Shown: positions 3,036 through 41,162, counted from the stretch's first letter. The stretch is DNA of 64,000 nt from an uncultured Lachnospiraceae bacterium (GCA_947175035.1 CAMWLG010000001.1:26982-90981), one strand, 5' to 3'. Numbers and translations are program-made. Notes: generated by a model not told the origin, from the letters alone.

Positions 3036-4856
3036 ATGATGATAAAATTACTGCCGGAGAAAAAAGGAACCTTTCTGCGCGCGTCCCTGTCTGATGTCTG
3101 TAACTTTTCCTGTGAGTATTGTGCAAAGGATATGGGGATGGAGAATCATACGCCCAAGTGTATGAATGTAGACTTATTAAGTGCGGATGATTATATCCGG
3201 AATCTGGAAAGAATTGCAGCGCACGGATTTGAAATCATATCTTTTACAGGTGGGGAACCGCTGCTTTGCAAGGATTTTGCCCGGATTGCCGAGGCGGCAA
3301 GAGGGCTGTTTGGGGTCGTGGAAATTACAACCAACGGCTCAAAGTTATTGGAGCATATGGAAACAATCCGAAAATATGTGGATGTATTGAAGATATCCGT
3401 TGATGCAGTGGATGATGATCTGCGGGTAAAAATTACCCGCAATGCCGATGCCAGGGATACCCTACAGGTTGTGGAGACCTGCTGTAAAGCAAACATTGCA
3501 CAGATGGGACTGAATTTTGTCTATATGAAACAGAATGCGGAAGAGTTGTCCCGACTGATTGCATTTGTAAAAGAACTGAATCAGAAGTATCATACCAATA
3601 TTTATATCAGCGTTCTGGATTTGTATTATTCCAAAGAAAACGATGCGTTCTGGCGGGAGCAATTCGTCAATTTGAAAGAACTGAGACAGTCATTGGAAGC
3701 AAAGGGCATCACGGTTCACCAAAGACTGAGAGTCGGCTGTGATTCCTATTACTGCATCTGGGACGGAGTCAGGGTTAATATGAAAGACAGCATGTCCTGT
3801 ACGCACAGGAGCGAAATGTGTCAGGAATGTGAGTGTTATTGTCAGGAAGGTATCTACAGCCTGAAGCATTCCGCAAGCGGCTGGCTTAGCGTCTGCCCTT
3901 CCAACGATGTGAAACTCGGCGCCCTGCTTCAGGAAGATGATGCAGAACAACAGATTGACCGATTTGTGGACATTTTGAACCATCTTACAAGAGTTCCGGA
4001 TACCGGATGGAATTTTATGGAAAAGAACGGTCTGTGCGATCAGCCGCATTTGATGAAACCTCAAGTCAGAGAATGCCTTGCTCTTTACCATAATATTAAG
4101 AGGCGGGCGAGAACATACTGTGAGGAACACGGGTTTCTGGAGTTTGATACGCCCGTGCTCACAAAATATGCCGGAGAACCCTATAATCCGACATTTTCCG
4201 TTTCGGTGGAAGAAAAAGCGATGCATCTGGCCGACTCGCCGCAGGTGTACAAAATGCTCCTGATGCTTTCCGGCTATGACAGATACTATCAGTTTGCACA
4301 TTGTTTCCGGCCGATCGCACACGAAAATGCTTCGGACACGCATTTGCAGGAATTCATACAGCTTGATCTGGAGCTGCATGTGGATTCTCTCGACGAACTG
4401 ATGGAGCTTGCCGGAGACCTGCTTCAATCTATTTGTGGAGACACGCCCTTTGAATTGATACCACACCTGCCGCTGACGACCGGGAAAAAGGGCGTTCATG
4501 GTGGTATTATGCCGGAACATCATATCTTTGCAATGCCTGAAAATCTGAATATTGGTCAAAATCATACGCTTCCGGAACCGGCGGATCTGCTTCAGGTAAA
4601 GACAGAATCCTTCGATATTGTATTGAATGGTATGGAAGTGGGCGGCGGTGATATGCGTATTATGGATGCTGCCTTGCAGGAAGCCATGATGGATCTTTTT
4701 CAGGTGGACAAAAGGGCATACCGGGATTATCTGCAAGCGCTCGGCCGCTATCACGGCAGACCTTTTGGCGGATTTGCAATTGGTCTTGAACGGCTGGTCA
4801 TGGCCATGTCAGGCGTGCCGGATATTAGAGATACAACCCCTTTGATATCATGTTGA
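3036..4856 (+). CDS. Radical SAM (MoaA-like) domain fused to an AspRS-like class II aminoacyl-tRNA synthetase catalytic domain
   Basis: N-half: CNFSCEYC, FTGGEPLL, ITTNG and a C-terminal Cys cluster (CQECECYCQEG...C). C-half: GFLEFDTPVL, SPQVYKMLLMLSGYDRYYQFAHCFR, EFIQLDLE, HHIF, NGMEVGGGDMRI, GGFAIGLERL. Confidence 0.8.
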   Translation: MMIKLLPEKKGTFLRASLSDVCNFSCEYCAKDMGMENHTPKCMNVDLLSADDYIRNLERIAAHGFEIISFTGGEPLLCKDFARIAEAARGLFGVVEITTNGSKLLEHMETIRKYVDVLKISVDAVDDDLRVKITRNADARDTLQVVETCCKANIAQMGLNFVYMKQNAEELSRLIAFVKELNQKYHTNIYISVLDLYYSKENDAFWREQFVNLKELRQSLEAKGITVHQRLRVGCDSYYCIWDGVRVNMKDSMSCTHRSEMCQECECYCQEGIYSLKHSASGWLSVCPSNDVKLGALLQEDDAEQQIDRFVDILNHLTRVPDTGWNFMEKNGLCDQPHLMKPQVRECLALYHNIKRRARTYCEEHGFLEFDTPVLTKYAGEPYNPTFSVSVEEKAMHLADSPQVYKMLLMLSGYDRYYQFAHCFRPIAHENASDTHLQEFIQLDLELHVDSLDELMELAGDLLQSICGDTPFELIPHLPLTTGKKGVHGGIMPEHHIFAMPENLNIGQNHTLPEPADLLQVKTESFDIVLNGMEVGGGDMRIMDAALQEAMMDLFQVDKRAYRDYLQALGRYHGRPFGGFAIGLERLVMAMSGVPDIRDTTPLISC

Positions 4857-30627: not shown

Positions 30628-32430
30628 TTAAGCCTCCACCAGATGTATCCCCTCGATATCCCCAGACGCCATCATTGAAAAATTCGTGTAATAGACCACA
30701 AATCCGGGTTTGGCGCCGCTTGGCTTTTTCACGTGCTTTTTCTGGATATAGTCGATCTCCACTTTGTCTGCGCCGCGCCCCTTGGAATAGTAGGCGGCGA
30801 GTTTTGCGGCCTCCTCAAAGGTGCGGTCGGGAAGTTCTTCTATGCCCTCCGATTTTACGACCACATGGGAGCCGGGCATGCCCTTGGCATGGAACCACCA
30901 GTCGTTTCCGGTGGCAAATTGGAAGGTCAGCTCGTCGTTCTGGTAATTATTTTTGCCCACATACATATGAAAACCGTCGCTGCTAAGGTAATGGAAGGGC
31001 TTGCTGGTAATCTTGGCTTTCTTGGGGGCACCCTTTTTGCCGCTTCCCTGTCGGCCCAAATCCCTGCGACGGATATAGCCACTCTCTATCAGTTCCTCCT
31101 TGATTTCCACCAAATCCTCCTCCAACATGGCAATATCCAAGGCGGCGTTGATGGACTCTAAGTGGTCAATCTCCGCCTTTACCTCCTCCGTCAGTGCGGA
31201 GAGGGCTTCATAGGTGCGCTTTAATTTATTGTATTTCTCAAAATACCGTTTGGCATTGTCTGTGGCGGAGAGTGTCTCGTCTAAGGGAATCGTGACAGGT
31301 TCGTTGGTGTAATAATTTACAACTTCGATAGATTTGTCCCCAGGGTTCGCACTGTATCCGTAAGTGTTTAACAGTTCCCCGTAAATGCGGTATTTTTCCC
31401 TCTTTTCCGTGTCCTTCATCTGATGGAGCTGCAAATCGTATTTCTTGACATCACGCTCCAGAGCAGTCTGTACGATACGGCGAAGGTCTGCGGATTTCTG
31501 GCGGATGCGGGTGAGAGCGTTTTTCTCCGCATAATAAGTCTCCAAAAGAGCGGACATGGCGGGGAAACGGACACAATGCTCTGCTTTGTCCTGACGGCTG
31601 TCTGTAGTGCCGGATTCGTACATTGTCAGAGGAATCGCTGCAAATTCCACGGGCTGCTTGCCCTGATAGGCGATGCAGGGCTCGAATCCACCCCTTCGGA
31701 TGGTGTCTGCCAATTCTTCCAATACCAAATACAGCCGATGGAAGTCCGCCTCTGCGAATGCCGCGGTGGAAGCTTCCCCGTCCAGCCCTGCCCGAAAGCA
31801 CAATTCCTGCGCCAAGAGCGGGGAAATGCCGGTAAAACTCCCATAGACCGCCTTGAAGAGCGGCTGGGGCTTGGCGAATATGGTCTGGTAAAATGTTTGA
31901 TAGTCCGTGTTCAGCACGTCCAGCTTGTCTTGGGTCTGGGCAATGTGGTAGGTCTTGCCGGGCAGTACCTCCCGCACACTGCTGACCGCGGCGGAGACAC
32001 GCTTGATACTGTCAATGATACGGTTTTCCTCGTCACAGAAAATAATGTTGCTGTGCTTTCCCATGATCTCCACCACCAGCGTTTTGCGGCACAAATCCCC
32101 CATCTCGTCCAGATGTTCTATATCAATATGGATGATGCGCTCCAATCCCGGCTGGGAAATGCCCGTGATGCGCCCATTCTGTAGATGTTTCCGGAGCAGC
32201 ATACAGAAATTTGGAGCAGTCATGGGACTTGGTTTATTACTTTCCGTGAGGTAAATCAGCGGCAGGGATGCCCCAGCGGAGATGAAAAGGCGCTTTTGAC
32301 CATCCGATGTCTTGATGGTTAAGAGCAGCTCGTCCTCCTCGGGCTGGGCAATCTTGTAGATTCGCCCGCCCAGAAGTTCCTTTTTCAATTCCCACACTAC
32401 GTTTGCTATGGTTACACCGTCAAATGCCAT
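30628..32430 (-). CDS. rqcH: Rqc2/RqcH (NFACT, FbpA-like) ribosome quality-control protein
   Basis: MAFDG, FCMLLRKHL, EIMGKHSNII, VGKNNYQND, WFHAKGMPGSHV, VKKPSGAKPGFV. Confidence 0.92.
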   Translation of the reverse strand: MAFDGVTIANVVWELKKELLGGRIYKIAQPEEDELLLTIKTSDGQKRLFISAGASLPLIYLTESNKPSPMTAPNFCMLLRKHLQNGRITGISQPGLERIIHIDIEHLDEMGDLCRKTLVVEIMGKHSNIIFCDEENRIIDSIKRVSAAVSSVREVLPGKTYHIAQTQDKLDVLNTDYQTFYQTIFAKPQPLFKAVYGSFTGISPLLAQELCFRAGLDGEASTAAFAEADFHRLYLVLEELADTIRRGGFEPCIAYQGKQPVEFAAIPLTMYESGTTDSRQDKAEHCVRFPAMSALLETYYAEKNALTRIRQKSADLRRIVQTALERDVKKYDLQLHQMKDTEKREKYRIYGELLNTYGYSANPGDKSIEVVNYYTNEPVTIPLDETLSATDNAKRYFEKYNKLKRTYEALSALTEEVKAEIDHLESINAALDIAMLEEDLVEIKEELIESGYIRRRDLGRQGSGKKGAPKKAKITSKPFHYLSSDGFHMYVGKNNYQNDELTFQFATGNDWWFHAKGMPGSHVVVKSEGIEELPDRTFEEAAKLAAYYSKGRGADKVEIDYIQKKHVKKPSGAKPGFVVYYTNFSMMASGDIEGIHLVEA

Positions 32431-32609
32431 ATGTGATCAAGTCCTTCCTATTCCAACCGGTTTTATATCCGGTTCTCTATTTCGTTTCGGGTTGTACCAT
32501 TGGATTCTATTCTATCAAAACTGGTGTAAAATATCAATGTTGTTTGGAATTGAACAAAAATTCCCGTAACAATCCAAGCTTCAATGGAAGTTGGGTTGGC
32601 ACAAGGGAC

Positions 32610-32763
32610 GGCTGGCATAGGTATACGTTCTAGCCGCGACACGCTCCCGCTCCGTGAAAAACGTAACGGATGCTAGGCTCGACGAGCTGCTATGCAGCTC
32701 ATTACCTCGCCAAGCACCGACGTTTTTCAAGGGTCGCTTGTAGAACATATACCTATGCCAGCC
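32610..32763 (-). ncRNA. Putative structured RNA / ssDNA hairpin element, copy 1
   Basis: 23-bp outer stem (32610-32632 with 32741-32763; the single non-Watson-Crick pair is G-U on the minus strand) enclosing a 94-nt core shared with copy 2. Confidence 0.5.
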
Positions 32764-32969
32764 TGTTCCTGCGCACTTACAATATCATTAACTTAAGTTT
32801 ATTATAGTTGAAATTTGTTATTCAGCACTATGAATTATCGGTGCTTTCAAGTACAAACAGTAGTATCTTAAAGTTAATGACATTGGTATACCTAGCTAAT
32901 AACAATTTAGCCTGCAATAGCAATTTTATTATGTATGCTTTACTAACTGATACTGCTTTGCCACGATCA

Positions 32970-33123
32970 GCTGATGGATGGGTATTGTTCCTATGAAGGC
33001 CTTTGAAAAACGTCGGCGCTTAGCGAGGTAATGAGCTGCAAGGCAGCTCATCGAGCTTAGCGTCCGTTACGTTTTTCACAGAGCGGGAGCGTGCCTGAAT
33101 AGGAATAATGCTCATCCGTCAGC
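32970..33123 (+). ncRNA. Putative structured RNA / ssDNA hairpin element, copy 2
   Basis: 25-bp outer stem (32970-32994 with 33099-33123; all four non-Watson-Crick pairs are G-U on the plus strand) enclosing a core (33000-33093) that matches 85/94 nt to the reverse complement of 32640-32733. Confidence 0.5.
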
Positions 33124-33318
33124 GTGACTTGCTGCAAGTCAGAACAGCTACGACTAAAAGTATTCCTTCTTGACATTTGTGGAGCTATAAAATATAATGA
33201 AATAGTCAAGTTGTTGTTTTATGTCAAGAAAATAACTGAAAAAATAGAAATATATTTTCAATTCGACAATTAAACCACATTGTGGCATTATCTGTACAAA
33301 TCGGGGGACAAAGGGTGC

Positions 33319-34236
33319 ATGGACGGGAAAGGACAGGGGAACAACCATAAAGAAATCAGTTTTGACGAGTTTCCGTATTTGGCAGAGCGTATCACGATTG
33401 GGCAGCCCTTGAGCGGCGGCGTCCACGTGATGCGTTGGTATGAAAATTTGCGTTTTCTTTATATTTTGGAAGGCAGGGCGGAGGTACAACTGCTGGATGG
33501 AAAGGTCGGACTTACCGCTGGGCAGGGCATTTTTATCAATCAAAGCGTGGTACATTTGGTGGAGGGATTGGAGCTTTGTCAATATGATAGTTTTTCTTTT
33601 CCGGCATATTTTTTGGGATTCTATGAGAGAAGCCCCATGCAGGAGATGGCGGAGCGATTGGTGAGGAACAGACAGCTTCCGGTCTATGTGTTTGACGGGG
33701 AACAGGATTGGCATTGGCGGGTGCTGTCGGGCTTGCGCAGACTTGGCTCCCTGAAAGAGAACGCGTCCGAACTGTATCCTTATGAAGTGTCGGTGCTGTT
33801 GGTGAATATGTGGCTGGAGATGCAGAGGAATATCGAGCTTCCGCCCAAGAAACGGGAGAGTGCGGTCTATGTCCGCATGCAGAAATTTCTTTATTTCATC
33901 GGACAGCATTTCAGGGAGGACGTGACCTTGGAGGAGCTTGCCGCCAGCGCCGGCGTGAGTAAATCGGAATGTCTGCGGTGTTTTAAGCAGAGTCTGGACA
34001 CGACACCCTACAAATATCTTATGGATTATCGTCTTGCCAAGGCGACGGATTTGCTGCGGGGGACTGACAGGCAGATCAGTGAAATTGCGATTTTGACAGG
34101 ATTTGAACAGTCCAGCTACTTTGGCAAATGTTTTCGGGAGAGGTTGGGATGTACTCCTAAGGAGTATCGGAAACAATTTAGTGAAAAAACTTCAAAAACT
34201 TATAAGAAAACTGTTTCCAAGCGGACAAATATTTGA
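33319..34236 (+). CDS. AraC-family transcriptional regulator
   Basis: N-terminal cupin; C-terminal LEELAASAGVSKSECLRCFK...ISEIAILTGFEQSSYFGKCFR. Confidence 0.92.
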   Translation: MDGKGQGNNHKEISFDEFPYLAERITIGQPLSGGVHVMRWYENLRFLYILEGRAEVQLLDGKVGLTAGQGIFINQSVVHLVEGLELCQYDSFSFPAYFLGFYERSPMQEMAERLVRNRQLPVYVFDGEQDWHWRVLSGLRRLGSLKENASELYPYEVSVLLVNMWLEMQRNIELPPKKRESAVYVRMQKFLYFIGQHFREDVTLEELAASAGVSKSECLRCFKQSLDTTPYKYLMDYRLAKATDLLRGTDRQISEIAILTGFEQSSYFGKCFRERLGCTPKEYRKQFSEKTSKTYKKTVSKRTNI

Positions 34237-34303
34237 TACAATTATGAGTACATAGAAATGAGTCGGGCTGACATCAGAGCAGACGGACGGAAATGGAGGA
34301 AAT

Positions 34304-34972
34304 ATGAGATATTATTTTGAGTCAGAGATTGAGAAAAAGGACAATGGCTACATGATTCGTATTCCTTTTAATATCTGGGAGGTTTGTAAGCAGAGAGAGG
34401 TAATCAAGGCGGACGTGGTTCTGGACAACAAGATTATCGACTGCGAGTTGTTGCCCAGAGAAAAGGGCAATTATGAGATCCATATCCCTGATGCGGACGT
34501 GGTGAGCGTGGAATTGGGATCTCCTCACAAGATTTTGCTTCATGTAAACGGTTCCCTGATTCGCATGGATCAGAACAGTCCCTATAGTTTTGAGAACCCT
34601 ATCCGCAAGATTGACAGCGTGGATGTTATCATCCAGCCGGAGGACGGTTTATGTGGTCAGGCATGCGTAGCTATGCTCGCAGGAGTTACCATTGCAGAGG
34701 TGATCACGGTTATGGACTGCAGGGAGTGGCAGGCTACCATGGGACGCGTGATTTCCGCATTGAATTATTACGGTATTGATCACACAGATATCATCAACTA
34801 CACCGAGGGACGCGATGTTGTGCTGCCCAAGTGCTGTGTCATGATGGAGAAGATGGGACGTTTCTGTCACTATCTCGTGCACTATGATGGCAAGTTCTAT
34901 GATTCCAATCTGGGTGTTTTGGATGAGTACGATATGAGCAAGCTGCTTGGCTATTTGGAGATCAAGTGTTAA
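34304..34972 (+). CDS. Small beta-barrel (DUF1905-like) + peptidase C39-like domain protein
   Basis: C-terminal half has Q...CGQACVAMLAG, HYLV and YD (papain-like Cys-His-Asp). Confidence 0.55.
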   Translation: MRYYFESEIEKKDNGYMIRIPFNIWEVCKQREVIKADVVLDNKIIDCELLPREKGNYEIHIPDADVVSVELGSPHKILLHVNGSLIRMDQNSPYSFENPIRKIDSVDVIIQPEDGLCGQACVAMLAGVTIAEVITVMDCREWQATMGRVISALNYYGIDHTDIINYTEGRDVVLPKCCVMMEKMGRFCHYLVHYDGKFYDSNLGVLDEYDMSKLLGYLEIKC

Positions 34973-41133: not shown

Positions 41134-41162
41134 GTAACAGTTCATGAGGACTGAACTGTTAC
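41134..41162 (+). terminator. Hairpin after eno
   Basis: GTAACAGTTCA-tgaggac-TGAACTGTTAC. Confidence 0.65.

Follow-up and report, generated by a model that had tools for sequence, protein, structure and literature searches.

Hairpin-forming families that resemble miniature inverted-repeat transposable elements (MITEs) include ERIC/IRU and YPAL in Enterobacteria, Correia/NEMIS in Neisseria, bcr1 in the Bacillus cereus group and RUP/BOX in pneumococcus. Intergenic repeats of this kind have been reviewed (PMC3184786). Here, we analyzed a stretch of 64,000 nucleotides from an uncultured Lachnospiraceae bacterium (GCA_947175035.1, CAMWLG010000001.1:26982-90981; hereafter, the window), in which two inverted 94-nt cores are located between rqcH and an AraC-type gene. 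Both cores probably constitute the centres of hairpin modules within one composite, non-coding palindromic repeat, which belongs to a Lachnospiraceae-wide family of non-autonomous mobile DNA. As a description of this family, selfish DNA is more plausible than a regulatory RNA with a dedicated function. No description of the repeat was found in the searchable literature, and the family is apparently undescribed and probably mobile.

In line with ERIC, Correia, bcr1 and RUP-type repeats, the repeat analyzed here is short, non-coding and intergenic, is present in tens of copies, and folds as a unit into a long imperfect hairpin. Variants with internal insertions are found, copies lie in both orientations and inside operons, and terminal repeats and target duplications are sometimes present. 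This contrasts with the following properties, which separate the repeat from those families: its centre is conserved (in approximately 130 genera) while arms and termini are subfamily- or copy-specific, its near-perfect arms measure from 25 to >100 bp, and its units are nested in other hairpins. Moreover, it shares no sequence similarity with them, and no parent insertion sequence was found. The conservation of the centre rather than the ends throughout the family, and the nesting of units into ever longer palindromes, are unusual.

Repetitive extragenic palindromic (REP), BIME and REPIN sequences (PMC3333891, PMC2817692) also occur at high copy number as single units and as mosaic, inverted doublets with variable linkers, and form imperfect hairpins with a conserved asymmetry. 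However, the units described here measure about 150-300 nt instead of 20-40 nt, no gene for a REP-associated tyrosine transposase (RAYT) co-occurs, single units are dispersed as well, some copies show 9-11-bp target duplications, and the hosts are Firmicutes. A further precedent is given by IS1397, ISKpn1 and IS110-family elements, which target the loops of palindromic units or REPs (PMC1525189, PMC12288879). Similarly, loci L155, L156, L091 and L226 of this study correspond to insertion in the loop of an existing hairpin, with host stem on both sides. Those elements, however, are autonomous, encode their own transposase and use specific REP targets, whereas the inserted unit here is a non-coding hairpin whose targets range from terminator-like hairpins and other repeats to non-hairpin sites.

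The window cores and the family to which they belong

The initial annotation had reported that a core at 33000-33093 matches the reverse complement of 32640-32733 at 85 of 94 nt, with nine differences that preserve one fold. A repeat search recovered the same inverted pair (90% complementary), whose similarity was far beyond chance (BLAST, E = 2.5e-31), and the differences were read at positions 3, 18, 23, 42, 43, 51, 58, 63 and 81. Three compensatory swaps account for six of them (3/81, T-A vs. C-G; 18/63, C-G vs. T-A; 23/58, A-T vs. G-C), and the others correspond to a U-A vs. U-G pair (33/51) and to two loop positions (42 and 43). Core copy 1 (32640..32733, minus strand) and core copy 2 (33000..33093, plus strand) were both matched by a covariance model of the core with 27 base pairs (R1), at 32632-32739 (-) with 82.2 bits and at 32994-33101 (+) with 87.9 bits, respectively. 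Family-wide, the core spans approximately 75-95 nt and forms an asymmetric rod with three constant bulges, a variable apical hairpin and a side mini-hairpin of the type G(C/U)-GNRA-(G/A)C. In the window, by sequence and fold, this mini-hairpin reads GC-GGGA-GC at 32643-32650 (-) in copy 1 and at 33083-33090 (+) in copy 2.

Each core was confirmed to lie inside its own long closing stem, by an inverted-repeat search for copy 1 and by folding for copy 2. In module A (32566..32769, sense strand minus; nhmmer match C1:59588-59748 (-)), the outer stem is a 31-nt inverted repeat with 87% complementarity, whose 5' and 3' arms on the sense strand are found at 32733..32763 and 32610..32640, respectively. 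In the hairpin unit of module B (32962..33127, plus strand; nhmmer match C1:59943-60108 (+)), the arms fold at approximately 32966-33000 and 33093-33127. The core sense strand is the better-folding one in both modules, with -95.9 kcal/mol on the minus strand vs. -90.3 kcal/mol on the plus strand for module A, and -103.7 kcal/mol on the plus strand vs. -88.3 kcal/mol on the minus strand for module B. The outer stems, which had been described as unrelated, turned out to be arm subfamilies A and B of a single family: they can be aligned beside the core (GTTCTA / GTTCCTAT), and both arm types recur elsewhere in the same genome as judged by BLAST. The whole composite is an A-B doublet of 586 bp (32566..33151), with ends placed according to homologous A, B and A-B copies elsewhere (C26:15196-15425, C42:27804-28214 and C16:37976-38446).

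The genome of origin (G000; 3.55 Mb in 151 contigs) was searched by BLAST and nhmmer, with the sense strand being read from the score. Approximately 29 dispersed units of about 165 nt were found. As is typical of MITEs, these were multi-copy and non-coding and remained below about 600 bp in length. They comprised four arm types (A, about 10 copies; B, about 13; C, 4; D, 3) and were built from an optional 20-nt hairpin insert on the 5' side, one of three kinds of apical hairpin and a mini-hairpin on the 3' side. With 32600-32769 as BLAST query, about 10 further A copies were recovered. An A(-)/B(+) doublet was present at no fewer than seven sites (the window plus C8, C16, C22, C42, C62 and C102), and partial doublets were observed in C7 and C108. 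All copies were intergenic and lacked an open reading frame (ORF), and their gene contexts were divergent, convergent or co-directional. Together with presence differences between sister species, these dispersed copies in every gene context back an option raised in the initial annotation, namely a non-autonomous hairpin or REP-like element that inserts into palindromes.

Outside this genome, R1 was employed with a core-only seed alignment; whole units of different arm types did not align (MAFFT/RNAalifold). Matches were obtained in 130 of 401 Lachnospiraceae genera, usually with many copies each; among 399 Clostridia genomes, none from outside the family was matched. BLAST detected diverged copies in 9 of the 25 species of the same genus. 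More than 110 stretches were recovered when each species was represented by one genome and scanned for the exact pattern; nearly all those listed were labelled Lachnospiraceae, mostly Acetatifactor-like metagenome-assembled genomes (MAGs) obtained from the guts of roe deer, rabbit, mouse, buffalo and sheep, and a few were labelled only as uncultured bacteria. Copy numbers per genome ranged from 1 to >38. Comparison with Rfam yielded no match at E <= 10 in 31500-34500 and none at E <= 1 for six further copies, and no BLAST match was found in plasmid and phage collections.

This distribution also bears on the idea that the copies are DNA sites serving the host and kept by chromosome-level selection rather than by mobility. 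For instance, proteins of the nucleoid or of replication, or a topoisomerase, might bind or structure them, in analogy to a proposal made for BIMEs. The conservation of the core sequence across the family, the intergenic position of all copies and the symmetry of motifs TTGAAAAACGT / ACGTTTTTCA would fit such sites. Nevertheless, we regard them as very improbable, given a patchy spread (about a third of genera, 9/25 species of the genus), copy numbers that vary from 1 to >38, loci that are not conserved between species, and the existence of deletion remnants. One remnant is C7:47673-47727, in which the A arms are kept and the core has been lost between short CGT repeats; the other is the G768 allele of L228 (G768:C15, approximately 3170-3260), in which the 3' part is all that remains of the core. 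Both derivatives can also be seen as signs of palindrome instability. Resemblance of the core to parS, cre or DnaA boxes, assessed by eye, was limited to half-sites and was discarded, and a CRISPR repeat likeness (GGGAGCGTG) was judged coincidental.

Lachnospiraceae rank with the most abundant commensals of the gut, and around a third of their genera carry the repeat, in tens of copies per genome. During annotation, it could be mistaken for a non-coding RNA (ncRNA), a riboswitch-like leader, a terminator, an invertible promoter or a CRISPR-like repeat. Near-perfect hairpins of 150-300 nt, between genes or in essential operons, could affect mRNA stability, termination and replication, and such repeats could possibly break metagenome assemblies. 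A use in strain typing, after REP-, ERIC- or BOX-PCR, is conceivable.

Layered arms and insertion into hairpins

In other genomes, the same core is enclosed by nearly perfect arms of 25 to >100 bp that differ from copy to copy. In G041, which carries approximately 38 copies, the homology between copies was nested and symmetric about the core, with inner layers common to copies and outer layers that were private, yet self-complementary. At L045, the apical loop of one unit was found to harbour a complete second unit in opposite orientation. A unit is made up of a conserved asymmetric core, long near-perfect arms that are subfamily- or copy-specific, and subfamily-specific termini. Where a copy sits in the loop of a small hairpin or in the apex of another copy, the host stem becomes the new outer layer.

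Insertion into palindromes, as anticipated in the initial annotation, was in agreement with reconstructed or observed empty sites, which were small hairpins with the insertion in the loop. Removal of the element and one repeat copy from L155, L156 and L091 left a small hairpin with the duplication at its loop, and two of these hairpins were terminator-like; L064, L113 and L119 did not reconstruct in this way. Sister species G303 and G768 of another genus, with flanks that were 89-98% identical, provided allelic comparisons: 11 of 15 G303 copies were filled in both species and 4 differed, the G768 allele being shorter, empty or truncated. At L226, G768 shows the intact hairpin GGGCG-GAAATTA-CGCCC followed by a T-rich tract, and the G303 element lies inside its loop. 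Further, the left flank of the filled allele was changed at four positions, all of them toward complementarity with the unchanged right flank. The L226 alleles therefore support both hairpin-loop insertion and the recopying of one arm from the other.

With regard to other comparisons, flanks in MAGs of the same genus were only 70-86% identical, the intergenic DNA could not be aligned, and the genome of origin lacked the element at those loci. When exact flanking proteins were used to look for strain-level empty sites, either no hit was obtained or the assembly retrieved was the same one or nearly identical to it. Two Acetatifactor species (L065 and L082) carry orthologous copies between a T-box-type terminator and the start of pheS; these differ in their apical hairpins and, within the arm, by a compensated replacement of C-G with U-A, and the genome of origin has only the T-box leader there.

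The outer arm of L079 includes the last three codons and the stop codon of polC. The polC gene of the genome of origin encodes the same C-terminus and is element-free, indicating that native sequence can form part of an arm. Inverted duplication of the native flank as the sole source of outer arms was nonetheless weakened, since the reconstructed or observed empty sites already hold the stem. It is retained as a secondary process, in view of the left flank of L226 and the polC stop codon within the arm.

Covariation and the strand that carries the fold

The initial annotation had seen in the preserved fold the mark of selection on a single-stranded structure. This is only partly supported. The fold does covary strongly. 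Among 71 distinct sequences, 96.8% of cells were paired and double changes were detected in 25 of the 27 pairs (284 cells); one-sided changes (29 cells) were about ten times rarer, and G-U amounted to approximately 1.6% of cells. Neither shuffled nor slid controls came near the observed pairing and covariation values, which derive from an alignment fitted to the model and thereby favouring pairing. The 2-bp stem of the side hairpin covaries as well (C-G to U-A, with both intermediates seen). However, the changes are nearly all from Watson-Crick to Watson-Crick, and the strand asymmetry is modest. Such changes, along with the rarity of one-sided changes and of G-U, fit DNA arm recopying better than stepwise RNA evolution.

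That template switching can homogenize inverted repeats and make them expand is well established (PMC8604942, PMC13100816, PMC5941160). When it acts on quasi-palindromes (see also PMC7202029), it explains both Watson-Crick-only compensation without G-U intermediates and the outward perfection of arms, as in the left flank of L226; being a general mutational process, however, it accounts neither for dispersal nor for a conserved asymmetric core. In the mobile DNA family that we favour, an enzyme encoded elsewhere would move the units, and the arms would be kept complementary by polymerase template switching at quasi-palindromes, with one DNA arm being recopied from the other. This recopying would give the appearance of RNA covariation. 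In turn, the mobilizing machinery or a host factor may recognize the conserved asymmetric core on folded single-stranded DNA or as a cruciform. As a warning for the method, Watson-Crick-only compensation within a palindromic DNA repeat is no proof of an RNA.

The same data were considered in terms of structured ncRNA or cis-acting RNA modules (e.g., mRNA stabilizers, insulators or RNase III substrates) maintained by selection at the RNA level and copied by duplication. Such modules would display the strong core covariation observed, along with conserved asymmetric bulges and a GNRA-type side loop on a covarying stem. They would also agree with the strand data: the sense strand folded better in 24 of 28 copies from the genome of origin and in 81 of 104 others (means of -5.8 and -4.1 kcal/mol, respectively), and G-U pairs numbered 250 on the sense vs. 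176 on the antisense strand, an asymmetry partly inherited from the shared core. Furthermore, in other species, copies L070, L043 and L075 lie within the groES-groEL, atpA-atpG and infB-rbfA junctions, respectively, where they must be transcribed, so that the hairpin is sometimes part of an mRNA. The counterpart junctions of the genome of origin (C1:63462-63481, C50:13737-13802 and C9:55585) are element-free, and short or overlapping. A hairpin of about 200 nt is thus tolerated inside essential operons.

Despite these points, an origin in RNA-level selection is, in our view, unlikely. Between co-directional genes, the sense strand agreed with the genes in 33 cases and opposed them in 24, which speaks against a transcript-strand-specific function and also against a strong replication-strand bias. 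No promoter or terminator belonging to the element was found, no Rfam family corresponds to it, and the scarcity of G-U and of one-sided changes is not what RNA modules would lead one to expect; nor are arms that vary between copies, nested elements and sister species that differ in presence. In addition, mini-hairpins of the GCGAAAGC type are extremely stable as DNA too, and the GNRA side loop is for this reason not RNA-specific.

A cis-regulatory leader, likewise listed in the initial annotation, is contradicted. The composite is flanked by two predicted divergent promoters, at 32537-32509 (-) and 33170-33198 (+), the latter being a perfect TTGACA-17-TATAAT (12/12 match). Both window copies are consequently upstream of the predicted rqcH and AraC-type promoters and outside either 5' untranslated region. 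Copies of the family flank unrelated genes, with an unbiased orientation relative to their neighbours. The window element is simply lodged between two divergent promoters, and nothing ties it to the control of rqcH or of the AraC-type gene.

Termini, candidate enzymes and layout of the composite

When copies were aligned with their flanks, A, B and A-B units were found to share the termini GTAACAGTTCAG(Y)C ... G(R)CTGAACTGTTAC. The sequence GTAAC(A/T)(G/A)TTCAG bounds these units, in line with the shared terminal repeats of MITEs. In the window itself the termini are degenerate. Its left terminal inverted repeat (32566..32579, plus strand), defined by sequence and by the consensus termini of A and B units, reads GTAACAATCCAAGC (family consensus, GTAACAGTTCAGYC), and the right one, within the 3' tail of module B (33128..33151, plus strand; alignment of B 3' ends), reads GCAAGTCAGAACAGCTAC (consensus, GCAAGGCTGAACTGTTAC). 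The G041 subfamily is bounded by CAATGTCATTTAGTT instead.

Ends of the type GTAAC...GTTAC also bound core-less repeats in the genome of origin, namely two families of siblings, of 153 nt (at least 6 copies) and 174 nt (at least 10 copies), as well as minis of 29-61 nt. The siblings (e.g., C14:14427-14579, C52:4027-4200 and C3:46959-47038) show clean 8-bp AT-rich target duplications (AATATTTT, ATCTGTTT and AAATTGCT). In G041, the hairpin-unit ends CAATGTCATTTAGTT similarly flank a mini of 80 nt and a palindrome of 723 nt that lacks the core. The core is therefore not needed for mobilization by those ends. The giant palindrome (L202 976-1698; G041:C73) has ends CAATGTTATTTAGTTAAG, with CCACTTT(C)GG flanking it on both sides. 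An unrelated repeat of the same genome (L204 1170-1330; G041:C65) comprises two direct copies of GGGGGAGTGGGGATAGATATCCTCTATAAGGGTGACTTGCCAC and an inverted partial copy, with a truncated mini-repeat adjoining.

The ends of IS66/ISBst12-type elements, as described in ISfinder, begin with GTAA, and their insertion is accompanied by an 8-bp duplication. The A and B units and the 153- and 174-nt siblings resemble MITEs of this type in their GTAAC...GTTAC ends, as do the siblings in their 8-bp duplications. However, the assembly of origin contains no IS66 DDE gene, ten IS66-type loci of the genus lack the ends, and in other genomes the arm subfamilies end quite differently and show duplications of 9-11 bp.

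Regarding target duplications of the units themselves, symmetric direct repeats of at least 9 nt were detected in 7 of 101 copies, compared to approximately 1.3 in controls. Their length was 9-11 bp, and they sit just outside shared termini such as CAATGTCATTTAGTT (L155, L156 and L064). Immediately beyond one end, a T-rich tract was present in 33 of 95 copies vs. 15 of 95 controls.

Taken with the insertion sites, this raises the question of whether mobilization could be guided by structure: a hairpin-specific enzyme would read the folded core, cut at the base of the enclosing stem and paste into hairpin loops, the termini being arbitrary and the palindromes growing layer by layer. A core kept across 130 genera with variable arms and termini, the nested and symmetric homology in G041, the insertions in hairpin loops or in the apex of another unit, the T-rich tract and the lack of target duplication at most copies all point in this direction. 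An element of this kind is nevertheless unlikely. Subfamily copies share termini (CAATGTCATTTAGTT) and 9-11-bp duplications, as do ordinary inverted-repeat transposons, the same termini bound core-less repeats, some insertion sites are non-hairpin (L219, L113 and L119), and no candidate enzyme was found. It is likewise doubtful, if a little less so, that the core serves as the handle of a structure-guided mobilization in which units are excised at the base of the enclosing stem and pasted preferentially into the loops of terminators, of other repeats or of their own kind. If the core were indeed the recognition module of a hairpin-seeking mobilization, this would represent a new transposition logic.

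Searches for a mobilizing enzyme gave no linked candidate. No transposase was located between end pairs in G000, where the intervening genes are housekeeping genes, or in G041. Solitary ends in G041 proved to be mini or truncated repeats, and short contigs, which were not scanned against Pfam, contained IS21-like and other ORFs, none with the ends of the element. IS66-type DDE genes do occur in the genus (21 of 61 genomes). Since most of the genomes are MAGs, which often miss insertion sequences, the absence of a transposase is weak evidence.

The Y1 genes bear more directly on REP/REPIN-like units moved by RAYT (Y1/HUH) proteins and on palindrome-associated elements of the IS200/IS605 type. 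Hairpin units that occur singly and as inverted doublets, as REPINs or BIMEs do, and imperfect hairpins with conserved extrahelical bases would fit such an assignment. It is, however, largely refuted and retains hardly any probability: PF01797 is absent from the copy-rich G000, G041 and G349 and present in the element-free G042, G044 and G059; some copies are flanked by target duplications of 9-11 bp, a feature foreign to Y1 transposition; strand bias is lacking; and units are 4-6 times longer than REPs. For IS200/IS605-type membership in particular, the duplications, the unbiased orientation and the missing Y1 association led to its rejection. In summary of these comparisons, the element corresponds by description to a MITE, with no cognate insertion sequence found and with target duplications of 9-11 bp at a minority of copies, and not to a RAYT-dependent repeat. 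In the way it works, it resembles hairpin-forming repeats of the MITE, ERIC or REPIN kind, to which loop-directed insertion, as practised by IS1397 in REPs (PMC1525189), and homogenization of inverted repeats through template switching (PMC8604942, PMC13100816) are added.

Several of these observations weigh against a family of non-autonomous mobile DNA. No transposase is linked to the element, the IS66-type DDE gene is absent from the assembly of origin, the ten IS66-type loci of the genus are without GTAACAGTTCAG ends, and Y1/RAYT genes do not track the element. Most copies have no recognizable target duplication, including the window copy, the other A-B doublets and the polymorphic L219 and L220. 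At these two loci, the extra G303 DNA consisted of a hairpin unit plus 40-95 nt of non-palindromic sequence, at a non-hairpin site. Because of the missing duplications and this additional DNA, classical cut-and-paste is not demonstrated. Further, the core is more conserved than the termini, which is the reverse of ordinary MITEs, and bulges and side hairpin persist despite the proposed homogenization of the arms. Finally, the better folding of the sense strand and its excess of G-U pairs leave room for a strand-specific role, which may be exerted by RNA or by single-stranded DNA.

Between its two modules, the window composite contains an AT-rich private spacer of 116 nt (32770..32885), which was unmatched elsewhere in the genome of origin; in C42 and C8, modules A and B adjoin directly without a spacer. 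A weak 30-nt inverted repeat within it (32780-32809 / 32856-32885, 73% complementary) is perhaps the decayed relic of another hairpin insertion. The spacer is followed by the 5' extension of module B (32886..32961, plus strand), which is kept among B copies as seen in the alignment of 13 of them with flanks. This same alignment places an end-like motif, TAACAATTTAGCC, at 32900-32912 (+) inside the extension.

Two minor observations concern other sites. Directly downstream of the C16 A-B doublet lies an FMN riboswitch (112 bits; L002 1985-2118, at approximately 38.5 kb). In the window, a 29-nt palindrome at 41134-41162 consists of two terminal repeats only (GTAACAGTTCATGAGGACTGAACTGTTAC), with ends as in A and B units.

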